Sequence record: LC494302.1
Strand: one strand, 5' to 3'
Length of the DNA: 64,000 bases
Source of the DNA: Escherichia phage SP27
The notes under the pieces are model-generated. The model did not search any database and was not told where the DNA came from. It saw nothing but the letters and a program-made list of their open reading frames with translations. The position numbers and the translations under genes were made by a program. This document shows positions 20,020-63,615 of this stretch, in pieces (the stretch's first letter is position 1; each line of letters begins with the position of its first letter).

Positions 20020-20048
20020 TTGACATATGAGTGCGTTTTTAATATAAT
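20020..20048 (+). promoter_or_regulatory. sigma70-like promoter (TTGACA-N17-TATAAT), embedded in terminator hairpin
   Basis: ttgacatatgagtgcgtttttaatataat. Confidence 0.45.
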
Positions 20049-33967: not shown

Positions 33968-34110
33968 TGGTGTATACTAATATTTTTACTGGTATTATGC
34001 GTAAATTTATTAATGGTACTGGATACGTATCTAATGACAACGGTAGTACATGGGTAAAAAATAATACGTCTGAATCTTTAGTAAAAAGTCTTCCGTATTA
34101 TAAAGCTTGA
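33967..34110 (+). CDS. small hypothetical protein (47 aa)
   Basis: ATG overlapping the upstream stop; below the ORF-track cutoff. Confidence 0.25.
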   Translation: MVYTNIFTGIMRKFINGTGYVSNDNGSTWVKNNTSESLVKSLPYYKA

Positions 34111-34135
34111 CACATGAAAATGGAGTATGTATAAT
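34107..34135 (+). promoter_or_regulatory. sigma70-like promoter (TTGACA-N17-TATAAT)
   Basis: ttgacacatgaaaatggagtatgtataat. Confidence 0.55.
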
Positions 34136-49972: not shown

Positions 49973-51127
49973 TTATGCGTTGTAACCAACTATTACGACT
50001 GAGCAGTCAAGCGGTTCTACTACTTTAAGAATTACATTATCATCTTCATCCACTTGTATTTCACTATGAACTACATGATTGTCTGAAGAATATAATTGAA
50101 CTTGTGGTAGTGCTTTACCATGTTCAGTTACTGGAACTGAGATAGAGTACATAGAGTCTTCACCGAGAACCCACTCACTTAAAGTATATTCTTTATGGAA
50201 AGGAGTAGTATGCAGTGTTTTTCCGATTATACTCAAAGAAACAGGTAAATTATCAGTTTGATACACAGTAATATTACCTTCTGCGTCTACAGAAAGATCT
50301 ACACCAACTTGATATAAGTCACCACTGTATGCTTGAAGTGCTAAGTACTGTCCACGATCATGAACATCAAATGGAACAACCGCAGAAAATACACCTTCCG
50401 AAACAGGTTCAAATTGGGATAGAAGAACTGATGTAACAAAATCAATATCCTCACCACTTTCAAGAACATCAAATTCCACCACTTTAGTGTTATAATATGG
50501 AGAAGTGAGCGTAGCAGTACCTTTCCCTGATTGTGTGATAACATCAACTGGAATTGTAAATGCATCATTAACAAATTGGGTAGTAAAGTATTCTGTCCCG
50601 TCTGGTAATACGATTGTTATTACCATACCGTTAGTATCAATTTCTGAACCAGTGTTGAATAATTTACCACTAATTGAGTCATTACCAACAAATACTGGTG
50701 AAATGAGAATATTATCTATATCACGATCTATAATACCACATTCAGGTGTATACATATGATACAAGGTTTGTGAACTACCTAAAATTGTTTTATGTAGCAT
50801 AAATTTATATACAAATCCAGTATCAGTTTCTTGTGGCTCTTCAGAATATCCACGAACAAAGAAACAATTTTTATTAATTTCACTTAATAGTTGGTCATTA
50901 GTTTTATTGTAATTTAATATATAACCTTTATTATCTTTAGTTGTTATTTGTACTTTACGATATATTATATTAGTTCTTGGATCAACTAAATCATATAATC
51001 TATGGCTTCTTTGGCGATAGATTCTAATATTTTTTAGTCTAGTTCCATCGTTGAGGATTGCACCATCAACAACATAACCACATTCACCAAACTTATAGCG
51101 TCCAGCCGCAGCAATTGACCTTGACAT
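49973..51127 (-). CDS. hypothetical protein (384 aa); only minus-strand gene in the window
   Basis: Long minus-strand ORF converging on a bidirectional terminator at 49943-49972; rich in Thr/Ser/Val/Gly, beta-rich-looking. Confidence 0.55.
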   Translation of the reverse strand: MSRSIAAAGRYKFGECGYVVDGAILNDGTRLKNIRIYRQRSHRLYDLVDPRTNIIYRKVQITTKDNKGYILNYNKTNDQLLSEINKNCFFVRGYSEEPQETDTGFVYKFMLHKTILGSSQTLYHMYTPECGIIDRDIDNILISPVFVGNDSISGKLFNTGSEIDTNGMVITIVLPDGTEYFTTQFVNDAFTIPVDVITQSGKGTATLTSPYYNTKVVEFDVLESGEDIDFVTSVLLSQFEPVSEGVFSAVVPFDVHDRGQYLALQAYSGDLYQVGVDLSVDAEGNITVYQTDNLPVSLSIIGKTLHTTPFHKEYTLSEWVLGEDSMYSISVPVTEHGKALPQVQLYSSDNHVVHSEIQVDEDDNVILKVVEPLDCSVVIVGYNA

Positions 51128-51187
51128 TTATCCCTCCATTGGTATAATTATTATAACGTATTTATTATGCATATCCAAAAAATGAGC

Positions 51188-52052: not shown

Positions 52053-52510
52053 TTATGTTTAAGAATTTTATGGTTATCGTAGCAGTACTGTTTGGTACAT
52101 CATGTTTTATTTCCCCAGTACACGCAGAAGAACAACGTCAAACTATTAAAACTATTGGGACTGGTAAAACTCCCCCTAAACGTACTGCTGACGAATACAT
52201 GCCTGAAATGCGTGAACGTTATCGTCAGACATACAGGGAAAAACATGCTAATGATAAACCCATCAAGAAGCATAAATGGGAAGTTGTTAAATCTCCTTCA
52301 TTTTGTGCTGGATATGCTAAAGTAAAGATTGAGCAGCACAAAAACCAGTACTATAAAGATATGTATTACTTCTATGACTCCAGAATTTCTGACACAGATA
52401 TGATGGCAGGGAAGGTTGATAAAGAAGAATTTCTACAAGGCTATGATATGATGGACGATGACAAAATCATGGAATGCGTTGAAGTGTATGAAAAATACAG
52501 AGGCTTCTGA
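52049..52510 (+). CDS. secreted/periplasmic protein (signal peptide)
   Basis: N-terminal MIMFKNFMVIVAVLFGTSCFISPVHA is signal-peptide-like. Confidence 0.5.
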   Translation: MIMFKNFMVIVAVLFGTSCFISPVHAEEQRQTIKTIGTGKTPPKRTADEYMPEMRERYRQTYREKHANDKPIKKHKWEVVKSPSFCAGYAKVKIEQHKNQYYKDMYYFYDSRISDTDMMAGKVDKEEFLQGYDMMDDDKIMECVEVYEKYRGF

Positions 52511-52986
52511 TGTTAACAATAGTGTTGTTGGTAAGTCCATTTGTGTATTTTGTGCTGTATAATATTTTTAGTAATGCTAATCATTTTAAATATGCACAAA
52601 CAATTGCAAAGCATGAAGGTTTTTGGAATTTTTTCCCAGCATTACTATGCTCATATCTATACCATGAACGCTATTTCATTTTTCCTGAATATAAAAATTA
52701 TGGTTATGATTCTAAAGTAAATGGTATAATTGAGTACTGTATAAGAAATTATCTTAATAATAATGATAACGTCCAAGTAAGAATAGGAAATGGTAATATA
52801 TCAAGAATAGTTTTCATACCTGATATACAAGATCCAATATACTTATATCCATATGATTATAGTATTAGTGTAGGTTGTTCGATACATGGTAGTAAATCTA
52901 TGTACGATTACTTTATCTTACCACCAACACAAATTAGATTAATAGAAAAATATTTGAGGGAAAAGTTTGACAACAAAGATTCTTAG
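52510..52986 (+). CDS. membrane-anchored protein
   Basis: N-terminal hydrophobic helix LTIVLLVSPFVYFVLY. Confidence 0.45.
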   Translation: MLTIVLLVSPFVYFVLYNIFSNANHFKYAQTIAKHEGFWNFFPALLCSYLYHERYFIFPEYKNYGYDSKVNGIIEYCIRNYLNNNDNVQVRIGNGNISRIVFIPDIQDPIYLYPYDYSISVGCSIHGSKSMYDYFILPPTQIRLIEKYLREKFDNKDS

Positions 52987-53487: not shown

Positions 53488-53910
53488 ATGTTCACACTAA
53501 GTAATGCAAAATATCTTTTTCTTATTGGTATTATTGGTTGGGTTATGGCTCCAGTGCTAAATGCACTGGGGTTTTCCGATGAACATAAACTTGTAAATGT
53601 TTCAGGTTTAATTCAGGGTATTTCATGGTATACATTAATTACATTTTCAGTGTGCATCAATACATTTGCCCGTGATTATCGACGTTTGTTATATCTGAAA
53701 GTATTTGGAACTACACGATATAGTTTTGTTTACACTTTCATTTTATTACCGTGCATGTTATATGCATTTGTATTTGATTACTATACATATCTATGGGTAT
53801 GTGGAACTATGTTTGTTATGTTGGAATACATCAGAACTGTTCAAAACTCATATGCCGATGAGTTTCATGATCTAGAAGTTAAACGAAAATTAACGGAGCT
53901 AAACAAATGA
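53488..53910 (+). CDS. multi-pass membrane protein
   Basis: Several hydrophobic helices. Confidence 0.5.
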   Translation: MFTLSNAKYLFLIGIIGWVMAPVLNALGFSDEHKLVNVSGLIQGISWYTLITFSVCINTFARDYRRLLYLKVFGTTRYSFVYTFILLPCMLYAFVFDYYTYLWVCGTMFVMLEYIRTVQNSYADEFHDLEVKRKLTELNK

Positions 53911-54332
53911 GAGGCTATAATAAGATTTGTATTTTTGTATTTTTAGTTTGTGCATTCAATTCGTTTGGTTACTACTGTACAGAAAATAATATTTCATATG
54001 GTTTAAATCCTTTGTGGTTTACAATTTCCAATGTAGCACAAATTGGTATTGCTCTTATGTCTGCACTTATGTTCTGTCCAATTGTCACTATGGATACGGA
54101 TCATGAAAGGCTTGGATTTCTCCGTGATACTGGAGACGAACCTTACAGTAGATTGATTGTGTTGTATCCATTTATTGTTATTTTAGGTACTAACATCCAA
54201 CTTGGGTCATTATCTAATAGTGTTACATCAGCAGCTATTGCTATATTTGCATTCACATTTTTTATGGTACACAAATCAGTACTTAATTGGTATATCACAA
54301 AAATGGCAGAAGAAGGTACTAAAAATACTTGA
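53907..54332 (+). CDS. multi-pass membrane protein
   Basis: Several hydrophobic helices. Confidence 0.5.
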   Translation: MRGYNKICIFVFLVCAFNSFGYYCTENNISYGLNPLWFTISNVAQIGIALMSALMFCPIVTMDTDHERLGFLRDTGDEPYSRLIVLYPFIVILGTNIQLGSLSNSVTSAAIAIFAFTFFMVHKSVLNWYITKMAEEGTKNT

Positions 54333-55923: not shown

Positions 55924-56889
55924 GTGAAAAAGCTTGATTTAAATACAATTGCCGAAGAAGTTCTGGATGAATGTTTTGCTAATGAAGAAGTCAACACACT
56001 AGAAGCCTTAGATTTCGTTGAAGATAAAGATGATAATGAAGGTAAAGTACAAAGCAGTTTCAAATATAATATTACACTTAAGCGACCACCAAATGTTTCC
56101 AATGAAGATCTAATTCGTGATATTCAAGCTGGTATCAATGTAAAGAAAAACACTGAACTGTTAGTTCGTTACAATTATGGACTGATTATTGATGTAGCAA
56201 GTAAATGTACTTGTTATATCCCATTTGAAGATAAGATTTCATATGGTGTTGAGGGGTTCATGAGAGCACTAAAAACCTTTGATCTTAATAAGAATGTTAA
56301 GTTCATTACCTATGCTTCTTCTAGTATTTACATGACAGTCTATAACGAAAGTTCTGACGCTAACTATATGGTACACTTCCCACGTTATATGAGTGTTCAT
56401 AAGATCAAAGTAAAAAGATTCTGCCAGGAATATATGCGTAAACATGGTGTTCGCCCAACACCTGAAATAATCTCAGAGGGTACTGGGATTGAGATTCAGC
56501 ATGTTAATAATTGTTTATTATTTCAAAGCGAATACACTTCACTGGATGCACCATTAGACGGTGTTACAGATGGTACATTAGGTGACATTATTCATTCACC
56601 TGCTTCTGATTTTAACCTCAATGTTGATAGTATCCGTGCACCTTTACGTTATGCTATCAATGAACTGACTAACGAATTGAGTACTAAAGAACGTGAGATT
56701 ATCCAGCGTGTTCATGGTCTAGGTGAATATGAACCTGAAACGCTTCGTGAGATTGCTGATAATGGTTTTGTTGATGATAATGGAAAATATGTTAAATCCC
56801 GTTCATCAATACACCGAAAGTACAGTGAAGCTATGCAAAAGCTTAAGAAGTTAGTACTTGCAAAAGGGTACGAATACGAAGATTTCTAA
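55924..56889 (+). CDS. sigma-70 family RNA polymerase sigma factor
   Basis: GTG start after AGGAGA RBS; region-2-like LLVRYNYGLIIDVASK...GVEGFMRALKTFD...FITYASSSIY and region-4-like HTH LSTKEREIIQRVHGLGEYEPETLREIADNGF...IHRKYSEAMQKLKKL. Confidence 0.6.
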   Translation: MKKLDLNTIAEEVLDECFANEEVNTLEALDFVEDKDDNEGKVQSSFKYNITLKRPPNVSNEDLIRDIQAGINVKKNTELLVRYNYGLIIDVASKCTCYIPFEDKISYGVEGFMRALKTFDLNKNVKFITYASSSIYMTVYNESSDANYMVHFPRYMSVHKIKVKRFCQEYMRKHGVRPTPEIISEGTGIEIQHVNNCLLFQSEYTSLDAPLDGVTDGTLGDIIHSPASDFNLNVDSIRAPLRYAINELTNELSTKEREIIQRVHGLGEYEPETLREIADNGFVDDNGKYVKSRSSIHRKYSEAMQKLKKLVLAKGYEYEDF

Positions 56890-57978: not shown

Positions 57979-58767
57979 ATGAGCACTATAGATGAACTGA
58001 TTCGACGGAATTCAAAATATTACCAACCATCAGAAATTGTAGGTAACATTACCAAATCAGAGTTTGGTCCAAATACTCGAAAACTCATTCATGTAATGTC
58101 ACGTGATGGCTTTAAATGTGATTGTTGCGGTGAATCTAATGTAGTATTCACTTTACACAAGCACAGTACTAAAGATCGTTATAAATTCAGACCTTATGTA
58201 CTTAAAGGGAAACGCCTTGTACGCATGACGTTAGACCATAATGTACTGGACTGTCTTCAGGGCGGTAATGATAAAGAGAACATGACTGCACTGTGTGAAG
58301 ATTGTAACGCATTACGCCAGCATAAGTTTGCTGAATACAGTGAGTTTAAACACTGGTATCATAACGCGGATCGTTCAATCGAGCCTGACGTTAACTACTG
58401 CTTCATTGAGTACATTAAGAATGCCAAAGATACATACATTCTTAAATCAATGTCACCTATTACCGTGTTTCCTGAGAACCTATTCACTACATTAAAGAAT
58501 AGTTTTATTGTAGGTGATATTGATGCATTCAAGTATTTTGACAAAGGTGCAAAACATTTTGAAATTCAATGTCTTAGTACTGCACTATGTGAACTCATTA
58601 AAATTTACATAAAAGAGTATTTGGGTATTGACAATGTACGTGTACCAGAGTATACTTTTTCTATTGAATTCGATTGTGAATCAATCAAAGAGTTTGGAAT
58701 TCTTTTCAATAAACAAATAGAACTTGCAATTCAAAACGAAATCAAGTACTATACTACTAACATTTAA
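57979..58767 (+). CDS. HNH endonuclease (free-standing, homing-endonuclease-like)
   Basis: CDCCGES...HKH...RMTLDHNVLDCLQGGNDKENMTALCEDCNALRQHKF: CxxC / DH-N / CxxC spacing typical of the HNH beta-beta-alpha-metal fold. Confidence 0.55.
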   Translation: MSTIDELIRRNSKYYQPSEIVGNITKSEFGPNTRKLIHVMSRDGFKCDCCGESNVVFTLHKHSTKDRYKFRPYVLKGKRLVRMTLDHNVLDCLQGGNDKENMTALCEDCNALRQHKFAEYSEFKHWYHNADRSIEPDVNYCFIEYIKNAKDTYILKSMSPITVFPENLFTTLKNSFIVGDIDAFKYFDKGAKHFEIQCLSTALCELIKIYIKEYLGIDNVRVPEYTFSIEFDCESIKEFGILFNKQIELAIQNEIKYYTTNI

Positions 58768-58782
58768 TCAGAGGAAATTATC

Positions 58783-58965
58783 ATGCAAATTATCATTCTT
58801 ATCGTTGGCATCATGCTGGGTGTTTACGGTCACTCCTGGATGAACGAGAAGTTTCCTAATACGCGTCCTGAGTATTGCAGTTCTAATGTATTCCAGAATG
58901 GTGAGAAACCAAAGGAAAGCATTGGTAAAAAGCTGGATAAAGTACTTGATGTGATCAATGAATAA
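58783..58965 (+). CDS. small membrane protein
   Basis: MQIIILIVGIMLGVYG hydrophobic N-terminus. Confidence 0.4.
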   Translation: MQIIILIVGIMLGVYGHSWMNEKFPNTRPEYCSSNVFQNGEKPKESIGKKLDKVLDVINE

Positions 58966-59272: not shown

Positions 59273-59300
59273 TTGACATAAGATATCAGTACTGTATAAT
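59273..59300 (+). promoter_or_regulatory. sigma70-like promoter with CAGTACTG spacer element
   Basis: ttgacataagatatcagtactgtataat. Confidence 0.55.
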
Positions 59301-59345: not shown

Positions 59346-59624
59346 ATGTCTTTTTCTAAAGAAGAACGTGACCTTATTAAAAAAGCAATTTGGTTTTATG
59401 CTAATGAAGGGAAGTGCGATGAAGAAAAAGCACGTGAACTGTGTAATATTCTTGAGAAGAAACAAGAACTGAAAGTGTATCGTATCCGTGATTTGGATGA
59501 AGGGGATCGTATTGTCCTAGCTGAAACAAAAGAAGAAGCAGAACAAATCTTCACTGATAAAAACGAAAATCCACATTGGATGGAAGAAGTCTGTGATGTT
59601 AAAAAAGGTACTTATATCGATTGA
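59346..59624 (+). CDS. hypothetical protein
   Basis: TAGGAAA RBS then ATG 59346; downstream of promoter 59273-59300. Confidence 0.45.
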   Translation: MSFSKEERDLIKKAIWFYANEGKCDEEKARELCNILEKKQELKVYRIRDLDEGDRIVLAETKEEAEQIFTDKNENPHWMEEVCDVKKGTYID

Positions 59625-59662
59625 CAGTACTGAATAATAGCAGTATTATGTTTTATATAAAA

Positions 59663-59743: not shown

Positions 59744-60052
59744 ATGTTTCAAACTAACACTCAAGGTTTTGTAATCATCGATTTGAATCAAAACAGCGGT
59801 TATTGGATGAAACCTACTGACGCATGTATGCAGTTTGATTTTTTAGGTTACAGGATTAGTGTAAGTACTGGTGCTTCTGTACTGAGAGGTGGTTGTATCG
59901 TTGAACATCTGGTAACTGATCCAGAAGGTCGTGAGTATGAAATCGCAGGTTCAGTACAAGATGCCATTATGTTTGTATGTCAGCGTGAAATGAATGGTTC
60001 GAATTCAAATGCACTGACTCATGCTCTTTCTCAAGAAGTGGAGGTTCGTTAA
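59744..60052 (+). CDS. hypothetical protein
   Basis: 102 aa ORF after GAGGAA RBS. Confidence 0.45.
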   Translation: MFQTNTQGFVIIDLNQNSGYWMKPTDACMQFDFLGYRISVSTGASVLRGGCIVEHLVTDPEGREYEIAGSVQDAIMFVCQREMNGSNSNALTHALSQEVEVR

Positions 60053-60297
60053 TGAAATACATTGTAGCAGTACTCGTCGCATTTCTACTCACTGCATGTG
60101 ATGCTTCTACCAAAGAACGTACAAGTGATTTTGTTCTACCTGCTGAATTAAAAGAAGCAGGGTGTAAGATTTATCGTATGCAACAAGATGGTGCTGGTGC
60201 AACTTTATACACTGTGTACTGTCCTAATGCAAATACAAGTACTGGATACACTAGCGGTAAAACACGAATCAACACTTCCGTAATTCATGGAGAATAA
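60052..60297 (+). CDS. lipoprotein
   Basis: Signal MKYIVAVLVAFLLTAC with lipobox L-T-A-C followed by Asp (+2). Confidence 0.55.
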   Translation: MKYIVAVLVAFLLTACDASTKERTSDFVLPAELKEAGCKIYRMQQDGAGATLYTVYCPNANTSTGYTSGKTRINTSVIHGE

Positions 60298-60299
60298 CA

Positions 60300-60668
60300 A
60301 TGAGCCTTGATACAACACGTGCAGCAGATTTATTAACTCGTCTGAATGATGAAGAATATCTTGCTGAGATAAAGTACAAGCTTGACAAACTTGTTCGAAG
60401 TGCTGAAGTAATTGAAGTTGAAGGTCACTTACCGATGGATCAATACCATAGGTTCAAGGAAGATATGGTTTATTATCCTAATGAAATTTGGATTGAGTGG
60501 CAACATTGGACTAACAAAACTCTTCGCATTGAAGGGTATTGTGTGAAGTATGAAAGTTCACCTGGTGATGTTACAAAAACTCTATCAATTTGGTGTACAA
60601 AAACAAATGAACTCGTTGAGGTGAATTTGAATTATATGAATGGATTCCGTTGGGGTGATGTTAAATGA
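60300..60668 (+). CDS. hypothetical protein
   Basis: 122 aa ORF. Confidence 0.45.
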   Translation: MSLDTTRAADLLTRLNDEEYLAEIKYKLDKLVRSAEVIEVEGHLPMDQYHRFKEDMVYYPNEIWIEWQHWTNKTLRIEGYCVKYESSPGDVTKTLSIWCTKTNELVEVNLNYMNGFRWGDVK

Positions 60669-60940
60669 TTAAAAAACTCTTGACTGGAATCATTGTGTGC
60701 AGTACAATGTTTCTTACAGCATGTAATGATGACGGCAGGTTTAGTGCAAAAGACTTAGTTCGTCAGGATTGTACATTCACAGGTAAGTCTTTTATTAACG
60801 AGTATGAAATATGTACACAATCAGGTCGTATCTGTGGTGGTTGGGAAAAACGTCAGGAGCGATTGTATGTATATGAATGCCCTGGACATCACAACAAAGT
60901 ACTAAGCACACACAAACTTGTTTATGATAAGGTTGAATAA
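60665..60940 (+). CDS. lipoprotein
   Basis: Signal MIKKLLTGIIVCSTMFLTAC with lipobox; Cys-rich mature part. Confidence 0.55.
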   Translation: MIKKLLTGIIVCSTMFLTACNDDGRFSAKDLVRQDCTFTGKSFINEYEICTQSGRICGGWEKRQERLYVYECPGHHNKVLSTHKLVYDKVE

Positions 60941-61155
60941 TGACTACCAATGAAATGATGCAGGTTATTTGGGATAAAGGTTGTGATATTAAAATCACTA
61001 GTACTGATGTTCGTGTATTCAAAACTGAATATATGGAGTACTTGGACCTTGATACTTATAATAATATTGTATCAATTGAACACAAAGGTGCAGTACTGGA
61101 AACCATTGACGTAGTACTCAAGAAAGCTACCGACCTATTAGGAGTGGCAGTGTGA
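60940..61155 (+). CDS. hypothetical protein
   Basis: 71 aa ORF. Confidence 0.4.
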   Translation: MTTNEMMQVIWDKGCDIKITSTDVRVFKTEYMEYLDLDTYNNIVSIEHKGAVLETIDVVLKKATDLLGVAV

Positions 61156-61299
61156 ATAACAAAGAGTGGGAAGATTACCGCAAGAAGTGCAGGGAGTTTG
61201 ATAAAGAACTTACTGGTACAGTGAATGCAGTAATGTGGGTATCTGTAATTATTGCAGTTCTTGCGTTGGGTGCTATTATTATTAATAAATTATTCTAAG
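61153..61299 (+). CDS. small membrane protein (GTG start, tentative)
   Basis: GTGA overlap with upstream stop; C-terminal VMWVSVIIAVLALGAIIINKLF TM helix; not in ORF track. Confidence 0.3.
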
Positions 61300-61308
61300 G
61301 CGAATATC

Positions 61309-61509
61309 ATGTTTACTTTATATCTCGCAGTAGTTCTCACCAATGGTGAAATCACTCGTACTATTGGTGAAGGTGTATATAAAACACCAGACCAGTGCTA
61401 CTCTGCCACTCATTGGCCTCGCGATAGTGGGGATGAAACTCGCACTGAATTCAAATGCATGAAAGTAAAAGGTGATTTTGTTAACCTTAAGGTTATCGAG
61501 GCGAAATAA
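61309..61509 (+). CDS. hypothetical protein
   Basis: Start placed at ATG 61309 (MFTLYLAVVL...) after AAGG RBS. Confidence 0.4.
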   Translation: MFTLYLAVVLTNGEITRTIGEGVYKTPDQCYSATHWPRDSGDETRTEFKCMKVKGDFVNLKVIEAK

Positions 61510-63371: not shown

Positions 63372-63604
63372 TACTAAGTTTTGTTGTTGCACTATTGTTT
63401 ATGTTCTATCCTACACTAGTGGCATTAGCCACTAGACGAACGATGGTAGATCTCACTACTGTATTCTTGCTAAACGTGGCATTAGTACTGGTGTCTATTA
63501 TCATTCCAGTGAGCTTTACAGTTATTGATATTATTTCGGTATTACTCTTCGTGTTAAGTTATCTTATGCTTATTGAAGAAACAAATGTTGACAAACGTTC
63601 GTAG
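63362..63604 (+). CDS. membrane protein
   Basis: Two or three hydrophobic helices. Confidence 0.45.
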   Translation: MYLVLSFVVALLFMFYPTLVALATRRTMVDLTTVFLLNVALVLVSIIIPVSFTVIDIISVLLFVLSYLMLIEETNVDKRS

Positions 63605-63615
63605 TACTGTATAAT
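63588..63615 (+). promoter_or_regulatory. sigma70-like promoter with GTACTG spacer element
   Basis: ttgacaaacgttcgtagtactgtataat. Confidence 0.55.

Follow-up and report, generated by a model that had tools for sequence, protein, structure and literature searches.

Two predicted small lipoproteins of Escherichia phage SP27, one of them from a widespread family of phage lipoproteins

Two genes in the SP27 window encode predicted prolipoproteins

Escherichia phage SP27 (sequence record LC494302.1) carries, within the 64,000-nucleotide stretch analyzed here (the window), two small genes whose products begin with a lipoprotein-type signal peptide. We refer to the products as Lp1 and Lp2 (Table 1). 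An original prediction, made from the letters of the sequence, had picked out both open reading frames (ORFs) by their LTAC lipoboxes, followed by Asp in the first and Asn in the second, and these assignments were exact. The N-terminus of Lp1 reads MKYIVAVLVAFLLTAC and continues DAS; that of Lp2 reads MIKKLLTGIIVCSTMFLTAC and continues NDD. Each has a charged start and then an uncharged hydrophobic stretch (MK and YIVAVLVAFL in Lp1; MIKK and LLTGIIVCSTMF in Lp2). A Shine-Dalgarno sequence is present at the proper distance upstream of both genes (GGAGG and GGGGTGA).

We found that such lipoprotein signals were rare in the window. A PROSITE-PS51257-style rule (K or R in residues 1-7, an uncharged stretch, a lipobox, and Cys at 15-35) was run on all in-frame starts of the 355 six-frame ORFs of at least 40 amino acids (aa). 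Only three of the 355 passed, and a strict lipobox, defined as [LVI][ASTVI][GAS]C, was found in two, Lp1 and Lp2. The third ORF, 52055-52510 (+ strand, 151 aa), has a relaxed lipobox, GTSC, and its signal appears more likely to be of the signal peptidase I (SPase I) type (VHA/EE) than that of a lipoprotein. This ORF has no Pfam match, and three membrane-protein genes lie downstream of it (52510-52986, 53488-53910 and 53907-54332).

In a genome as AT-rich as this one (33% GC), short ORFs may by themselves look like signal peptides. The two lipoboxes might then be chance features of ORFs that are non-functional or mis-called. However, none of the off-frame and minus-strand ORFs among the 355 passed the rule, which argues that the lipoboxes of Lp1 and Lp2 are not a chance pattern. 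Moreover, the only two ORFs with the strict lipobox both lie on the coding strand and have Shine-Dalgarno sequences. The conservation of the genes, described below, also bears on this possibility.

Table 1. Features of the Lp1/Lp2 locus and its surroundings (window coordinates)
Feature	Position	Strand	Details
Lp1 gene	60052..60297	+	prolipoprotein 81 aa, mature 65 aa; PHROG 902 / Lp1 superfamily
Lp1 lipobox L-T-A-C and Asp+2 codon	60088..60102	+	Cys16 60097-60099; Asp17 60100-60102
Lp1 predicted beta-hairpin between Cys38 and Cys57	60163..60222	+	Cys38 60163-60165; Cys57 60220-60222; strands 39-44, 51-56
Lp2 gene	60665..60940	+	prolipoprotein 91 aa, mature 71 aa; phrog_31263
Lp2 lipobox L-T-A-C and Asn+2 codon	60713..60727	+	Cys20 60722-60724; Asn21 60725-60727
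Gene upstream of Lp1	59744..60052	+	102 aa; phrog_26720; no hydrophobic segment; stop overlaps Lp1 start (TAATG)
Gene between Lp1 and Lp2	60300..60668	+	122 aa; phrog_22236; no signal peptide or transmembrane (TM) segment
Perfect sigma-70 promoter-like site	59273..59300	+	TTGACA-16-TATAAT; intergenic gap upstream of gene string
Near-consensus (11/12) sigma-70 promoter-like site	59621..59649	+	TTGACA-17-TATTAT; intergenic gap; nearest one upstream of gene string; putative promoter
Sigma-70-family protein	55924-56889	+	321 aa; Sigma70_r3 37.8 bits (above cutoff); r2, r4 just at/below cutoff
HNH endonuclease	57979-58767	+	phrog_35175 (E 6.6e-188); weak Pfam HNH; likewise annotated in 121Q, vB_Ec-M-J
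60-aa protein, N-terminal TM	58783-58965	+	single hydrophobic segment
48-aa tail-anchored protein	61152-61298	+	single hydrophobic segment
66-aa protein, hydrophobic N-terminus	61309-61509	+	single hydrophobic segment

Both genes are conserved and under purifying selection

The window was 99.8% identical to Escherichia phage vB_EcoM_E9.1 and 95-99.7% identical to slurp01, PBECO4, phAPEC6 and 121Q. These last four belong to Asteriusvirus (Rak2-like) and are jumbo phages, 310-386 kb in size, with E. coli and Salmonella as hosts. By these identities the window is DNA of an Asteriusvirus, a Rak2-like jumbo coliphage, and the Gram-negative host predicted from the lipoproteins was borne out.

We found that Lp1 and Lp2 are real, conserved genes under purifying selection. 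In comparisons with 121Q and vB_Ec-M-J, the ratio of nonsynonymous to synonymous differences per site (pN/pS) was 0.10-0.12 for Lp1, with many synonymous changes, and 0.26-0.31 for Lp2. Cys16, Asp17, Ala18, Cys38 and Cys57 were all invariant in nine Lp1 orthologs. The lipid-bearing Cys was invariant across the Lp2 orthologs, and a lipid Cys is kept across hundreds of divergent homologs. Given purifying selection with many synonymous changes, the notion that these are chance ORFs is effectively refuted. Databases already list these sequences under the names "hypothetical protein" or "Lipoprotein", the latter name having been given to Lp1 and Lp2 orthologs by a UniProt automatic rule. From their signals, both of which passed the signal peptidase II (SPase II) rule, we consider it very probable that Lp1 and Lp2 are bona fide prolipoproteins of the SPase II type.

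Synonymous divergence (pS) from 121Q and vB_Ec-M-J was uneven along the locus: 0.31-0.41 for Lp1, 0.18-0.19 for the next gene, and 0.015-0.046 for the gene directly upstream. The sharp jump marks 60052-60668 as a divergence hotspot and suggests allelic exchange there.

Lp1 belongs to a widespread phage lipoprotein family

Lp1 matched phrog_902 over residues 1-73 (E 1.5e-13). PHROG 902 is the actual family of Lp1, with no difference between the two, and the family is uncharacterised. With E<=1e-3 as the cutoff, an exhaustive profile search with Lp1 recovered 286 representative clusters; nearly all were 75-110 aa long and matched over their full length. Among the best 150 of these 286, the lipobox rule was passed by 140, and a lipobox was visible by eye in 6 more; 3 had an SPase-I-like signal, and 1 was an unrelated repeat protein. 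Exactly two additional cysteines were present in 116 of the 140 rule-passing members, and nearly all had two or four. In an alignment of 100 sequences, C38 and C57 were invariant, and the lipid Cys, P30, P58 and K70 were conserved in at least 90%. The consensus core from this alignment is LPxELxDCKxY...VVRCPNSxT...GK. The longer members had short tails only, with no enzymatic domain or fusion.

The family is found in many kinds of phage. tblastn detected it in 571-581 phage records, with one copy per genome. The carriers include Felixounavirus, Vequintavirinae/Certrevirus, Rak2-like jumbo phages of Erwinia and Serratia, Vibrio Demerecviridae, T4-like phages of Aeromonas, and Acinetobacter phages; host genera are Escherichia, Salmonella, Cronobacter, Erwinia, Vibrio, Aeromonas and Acinetobacter. 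The records examined were 55-386 kb in length, and none was a typical temperate genome of 40-50 kb. In wV8 (Felixounavirus), CR9 (Certrevirus) and Vibrio phage 70E37.1 (Demerecviridae), the gene lies in a co-directional string of small hypothetical genes, and in these three phages no lysis or receptor-binding gene was found beside it. A search of the literature found no functional study of Lp1, Lp2 or the Lp1 family.

Some periplasmic family members (P0031, P0088, P0097, P0101 and P0124) carry a C-terminal motif, ...ALxKLTxEERKALGL. The same motif is present on small cytoplasmic proteins that lack a signal (L008 1293-1580; L009 1288-1578) and are encoded two genes upstream of Lp2 orthologs (fENko-Kae01, EJP2). 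Precomputed tables list PF16225 (DUF4884) on members P0001-P0008 and P0023, and this was not reproduced by hmmscan against Pfam-A at E<=10.

Lp2 is restricted to Rak2-like phages and may be a paralog of Lp1

Lp2 was found in 39 phage records, Rak2-like without exception. Divergent orthologs (fENko-Kae01, 7t3 and EJP2; 38-41% identity) retain the lipobox along with two cysteines (DC-YTG... and YVY-C-P). A second pair of cysteines is limited to the close Asteriusvirus group.

Lp1 and Lp2 are possibly paralogs. When aligned with hhalign, all three cysteines were in register, and the score was 17.7 compared with 10.1 +/- 2.7 for shuffled alignments; 3 of 200 column shuffles scored as high. The two are not an obligate pair, because the Lp1-like and Lp2-like genes of EJP2 are 13 kb apart.

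The mature domain of Lp1 is predicted to be rich in beta-strands. An AlphaFold2 model built from the 100-sequence alignment had moderate confidence (predicted local distance difference test, pLDDT, 74), with strands at residues 19-22, 39-44, 51-56, 62-68 and 71-77 and a short helix at 31-35. Cys38 and Cys57 occupy cross-strand positions in a predicted hairpin, and for this reason we presume that they form a disulfide. A fold search with this moderate-confidence model found no match to Llp, to exclusion proteins, to lysozyme-inhibitor lipoproteins or to others. The corresponding model of Lp2 (pLDDT 40) was unusable.

Lp1 is probably retained in the inner membrane

In Enterobacteriaceae, Asp at position +2 after the lipid Cys signals Lol avoidance and hence retention in the inner membrane; the next residue is usually D, E or Q, no basic residue is adjacent, and the Asp is occasionally at +3 instead (PMC6469965). 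The original prediction had read the Asp+2 of Lp1 as such a signal and had contrasted it with the Asn of Lp2. In Lp1 the sequence is C-D-A. Asp+2 was invariant in Asteriusvirus (9 orthologs) and was present in 11 of the 13 sequences comprising Lp1 and its 12 closest relatives. Lp1 is probably held at the periplasmic face of the inner membrane, because it has Asp+2 and no long tether, and its first predicted strand begins three residues past the lipid Cys.

The contrast between the two +2 residues was not robust and carries little weight. Lp2 has C-N-D-D in the window, and its orthologs have C-D-D-G, C-D-D-E or C-E-P-E. Since they switch among N, D and E at +2, mostly with an acidic +3, Lp1 and Lp2 need not go to different membranes. 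The destination of Lp2 is ambiguous from these signals. In enterobacterial phages with Lp1-family members, the +2 and +3 residues vary by lineage (D-N in CR9, N-P in wV8).

The genes lie in a putative early region driven by host RNA polymerase

The coding strand of the window holds 123 non-overlapping ORFs that cover 89% of it, and just two of the 123 are lipoproteins. Sites matching the sigma-70 consensus at 11 or more of 12 positions numbered 32 on the + strand (11 of them perfect) and 2 on the - strand; shuffled sequences gave approximately 2.4 per strand. Examples on the + strand are 1841-1869, 20020-20048, 34107-34135, 51121-51148, 59273-59300 and 63588-63615. Promoters were called by matching to the consensus alone. 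The strand bias of these sites, together with the 123 co-directional small ORFs, suggests a very large early region driven by the host polymerase. We infer that the Lp1/Lp2 block is early and transcribed by host RNA polymerase. Within this putative early block, the protein encoded by 55924-56889 is, by its domain matches, a phage-encoded factor of the sigma-70 family.

The genes form a dense string (59744, Lp1, 60300, Lp2, 60940, 61152) in which most stop and start codons overlap (TAATG or ATGA). The neighbors are small hypothetical genes and an HNH endonuclease gene, with no receptor-binding or tail-fibre gene among them, and no holin, endolysin or other lysis gene is annotated in the neighborhood. 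Several tiny proteins encoded around Lp1 and Lp2 appear to be directed to the envelope (the three with a single hydrophobic segment in Table 1). A long minus-strand ORF, 49973-51127 (384 aa, no Pfam match), stands alone in the otherwise + strand block.

When a phage that infects Gram-negative bacteria encodes small lipoproteins, these could be o-spanins, the Rz1-like outer-membrane lipoproteins of lysis, and spanin annotation in Rak2-like phages is reported to be incomplete (PMC7760394). We consider it very improbable that Lp1, Lp2 or both have this function. There is no i-spanin partner for either, as the ORF upstream of Lp1 (59744-60052) and the one between Lp1 and Lp2 (60300-60668) lack any hydrophobic or TM segment, and the setting is a putative early block with no holin or endolysin nearby. 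Furthermore, Lp1 has an invariant Asp+2, and some Lp2 orthologs have Asp there too (Asn in the window). The mature domain of Lp1 is predicted to be beta-structured, neither mature domain is proline-rich, the two genes are far apart in EJP2, and none of the 60 best-matching records is labeled "spanin".

In sequence, Lp1 and Lp2 resemble known exclusion lipoproteins only over the signal peptide

Some GenBank records assign these genes to known exclusion systems. One record labels the Lp1 ortholog "Cor superinfection exclusion protein", and another labels both genes "lytic conversion lipoprotein". We found that both labels are, as judged by the alignments, artefacts of the signal peptide. With the Cor model (NCBIfam NF047972), the control, Cor of phage T1, scored 55.8 bits (cutoff 31); Lp1 and Lp2 gave no match at E<=0.1. 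When the Lp1 family was set against a Cor alignment by hhalign, the match covered signal-peptide residues 1-19 only, and with the signal peptides removed the match probability was 0.6% for Lp1 and 0.35% for Lp2. The match to phrog_1119 (Cor) was weak (E 0.0079, residues 1-48).

Results with other families were similar. Against T5 Llp (PDB 8a60 chain B), the Lp1 profile aligned over residues 1-18 only (E 9.4), and the Lp2 profile had no PDB match at E<=10. The TrbK model (TIGR04359) scored 15 bits, below its cutoff of 23, and the aligned residues, 4-40, are mostly signal peptide. Matches to TrbK, Bor, Rz1/LysC and the other Pfam and NCBIfam lipoprotein families were all below threshold and confined to the signal peptide. 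No model in Pfam, NCBIfam or PADLOC covers the mature domain of Lp1 or Lp2, and the PADLOC defence models matched neither these proteins nor seven neighbors. By these sequence comparisons, Lp1 and Lp2 are unrelated to Cor, Llp and the spanins.

Lp1 and Lp2 might nevertheless act in the manner of T5 Llp, Cor of T1 and phi80, or Rtp45, by binding the phage's own receptor from the periplasm and allosterically abolishing attachment of the receptor-binding protein at the outer membrane, so that progeny are spared from binding to debris. The shared architecture is consistent with this: a mature lipoprotein of approximately 60-70 aa with a presumed intramolecular disulfide, encoded in a putative early context (PMC9586334, PMC12685063). 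Two GenBank records bear labels of this kind, by signal-peptide similarity alone. Such a function is more plausible for Lp2, whose Asn+2 is not a classical retention signal and which is confined to one phage lineage, as would be expected of a receptor-specific factor. Overall, however, we think this explanation unlikely. Past the signal peptide no relation in sequence was found, nor a fold match for the Lp1 model, and the Lp1 and Lp2 genes, unlike llp, cor and rtp45, are not beside a receptor-binding or tail-fibre gene. In addition, Lp1 has the Asp+2 retention signal, and its core is kept across genera and receptors, which is unexpected for a receptor-specific blocker.

Discussion

We found that a Rak2-like jumbo coliphage encodes two prolipoproteins, one of them a member of a family present in hundreds of phage records. 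By analogy with phage lipoproteins, a role in superinfection exclusion or receptor masking, as in the original prediction, is a reasonable hypothesis. More specifically, we tentatively suggest, while holding that the odds are somewhat against it, that Lp1 and Lp2 block a step of secondary infection after adsorption, from the inner-membrane or periplasmic side. Both would be made early by host RNA polymerase, then exported, lipidated and disulfide-bonded in the periplasm, where they would sit directly on the membrane surface as small binding modules. The envelope of the infected cell would thus be altered, and a secondary phage would be stopped at cell-wall penetration or during DNA transfer across the periplasm and inner membrane. 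The action would functionally be like that of T4 Imm and Spackle or of TrbK rather than that of Llp or Cor. Phages that differ in receptor and host share the Lp1 core, so the target is less likely to be one particular outer-membrane receptor than a conserved part of the envelope or a step common to phage entry in general.

Several findings weigh against a post-adsorption block. No homology or fold similarity to any characterized exclusion protein was found. The promoter calls are matches to a consensus, the model of Lp1 has only moderate confidence, and that of Lp2 is unusable. The rule for Asp+2 exists, and the residue is invariant in Asteriusvirus Lp1, so this part of the original prediction was partly borne out. 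However, the +3 residue is Ala, not a canonical D, E or Q partner, although no basic residue is adjacent, and +2 is not conserved in the family (D 37, S 28, E 22, T 16, G 12 and N 9 among the listed members). Since +2 varies in this way (Asn-Pro in wV8, many S and T), anchoring in the inner membrane cannot be essential to the function of the family.

The same findings might also indicate an early function in host takeover or envelope management that involves no exclusion. Lp1 and Lp2 might modulate periplasmic enzymes or machines (peptidoglycan hydrolases, Tol-Pal, Lol/Bam/Lpt, proteases), set the timing of lysis, or counter a defence of the envelope. A conserved target is suggested by the shared core of the Lp1 family and by the variety of its hosts. 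The domain is also small and has no enzymatic character, the genes are placed among uncharacterised, putatively early genes, and there is no likeness to known exclusion proteins. On the other hand, searches of PADLOC, Pfam and NCBIfam matched neither protein to a family of defence, counter-defence or host-enzyme inhibition, and the Lp1 model had no fold match to lysozyme-inhibitor lipoproteins or others. We regard this explanation as possible but doubtful.

A broader proposal, which we offer as speculation and would not expect to hold in full, is that the Lp1 family is an unrecognised, widespread class of early lipoproteins whose fold is distinct. Across Gammaproteobacteria, these proteins would attach to a conserved component of the periplasm or inner membrane, or else to the apparatus with which incoming phages penetrate the cell, and would provide generic post-adsorption exclusion or envelope takeover unlike that of Llp, Cor, Rtp45, Imm or Spackle. 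Lp2 could then be a diverged paralog limited to one lineage.

Of the ways in which virulent phages shut out later phages, the one that uses small lipoproteins is understood best (Llp acting on FhuA, Rtp45 on LptDE), and every case solved has revealed an essential envelope machine in a vulnerable state. The Lp1 family is far wider than Llp or Cor, extending over Felixounaviruses and rV5-like, Rak2-like, T4-like and T5-like phages from a number of genera, among them many phages that serve in phage therapy. If Lp1 does have a conserved envelope target, it would be relevant to envelope biology and to the design of phage cocktails, in which exclusion of one phage by another given with it is a practical problem. 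The observation itself is sound but unremarkable. What modest interest it has comes from how widely the Lp1 family is distributed and from the correction of annotation: the GenBank labels "Cor" and "lytic conversion lipoprotein" on these genes should not be propagated.

The likeness to known systems is in general form. Cor (T1, phi80, N15 and HK022) is a lipoprotein of approximately 75 aa with a disulfide and a similar signal peptide. It differs in having Ser at +2 and a mature domain unrelated to those of Lp1 and Lp2, and T1 cor is directly downstream of the tail-fibre gene, a placement not seen for Lp1 and Lp2. T4 Imm acts at the inner membrane and blocks entry after adsorption, and TrbK of RP4 is an inner-membrane entry-exclusion lipoprotein. 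T4 Spackle is a periplasmic inhibitor of the incoming tail lysozyme (PMC7677548). These three are small, early or constitutive envelope proteins, and their post-adsorption block is the functional analogy proposed for Lp1; none of the three has homology to Lp1 or Lp2, and Imm and Spackle differ further in that they are not lipoproteins.

T5 Llp is a small early lipoprotein of a virulent coliphage, approximately 60 aa when mature, that has an intramolecular disulfide and acts in the periplasm (PMC9586334). Lp1 and Lp2 are like it in small size, in being of the lipoprotein type, and in the similar length of the mature domain. In contrast to the Lp1 and Lp2 genes, llp adjoins the gene for the receptor-binding protein; Llp is also a lipoprotein of the outer membrane, and Lp1, by contrast, has Asp at +2. 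Rtp45 of phage Rtp, an exclusion lipoprotein of approximately 6 kDa, binds LptDE at the periplasmic membrane interface (PMC12685063). It shows that exclusion by lipoproteins need not be confined to TonB-dependent receptors. Rtp45 differs from Lp1 and Lp2 in being tied to the receptor-binding protein of small siphophages, and it has no detectable similarity to either. If Lp1 and Lp2 are exclusion factors, they would represent an unrelated family and fold, probably acting at a different membrane, among the small early lipoproteins of phages.

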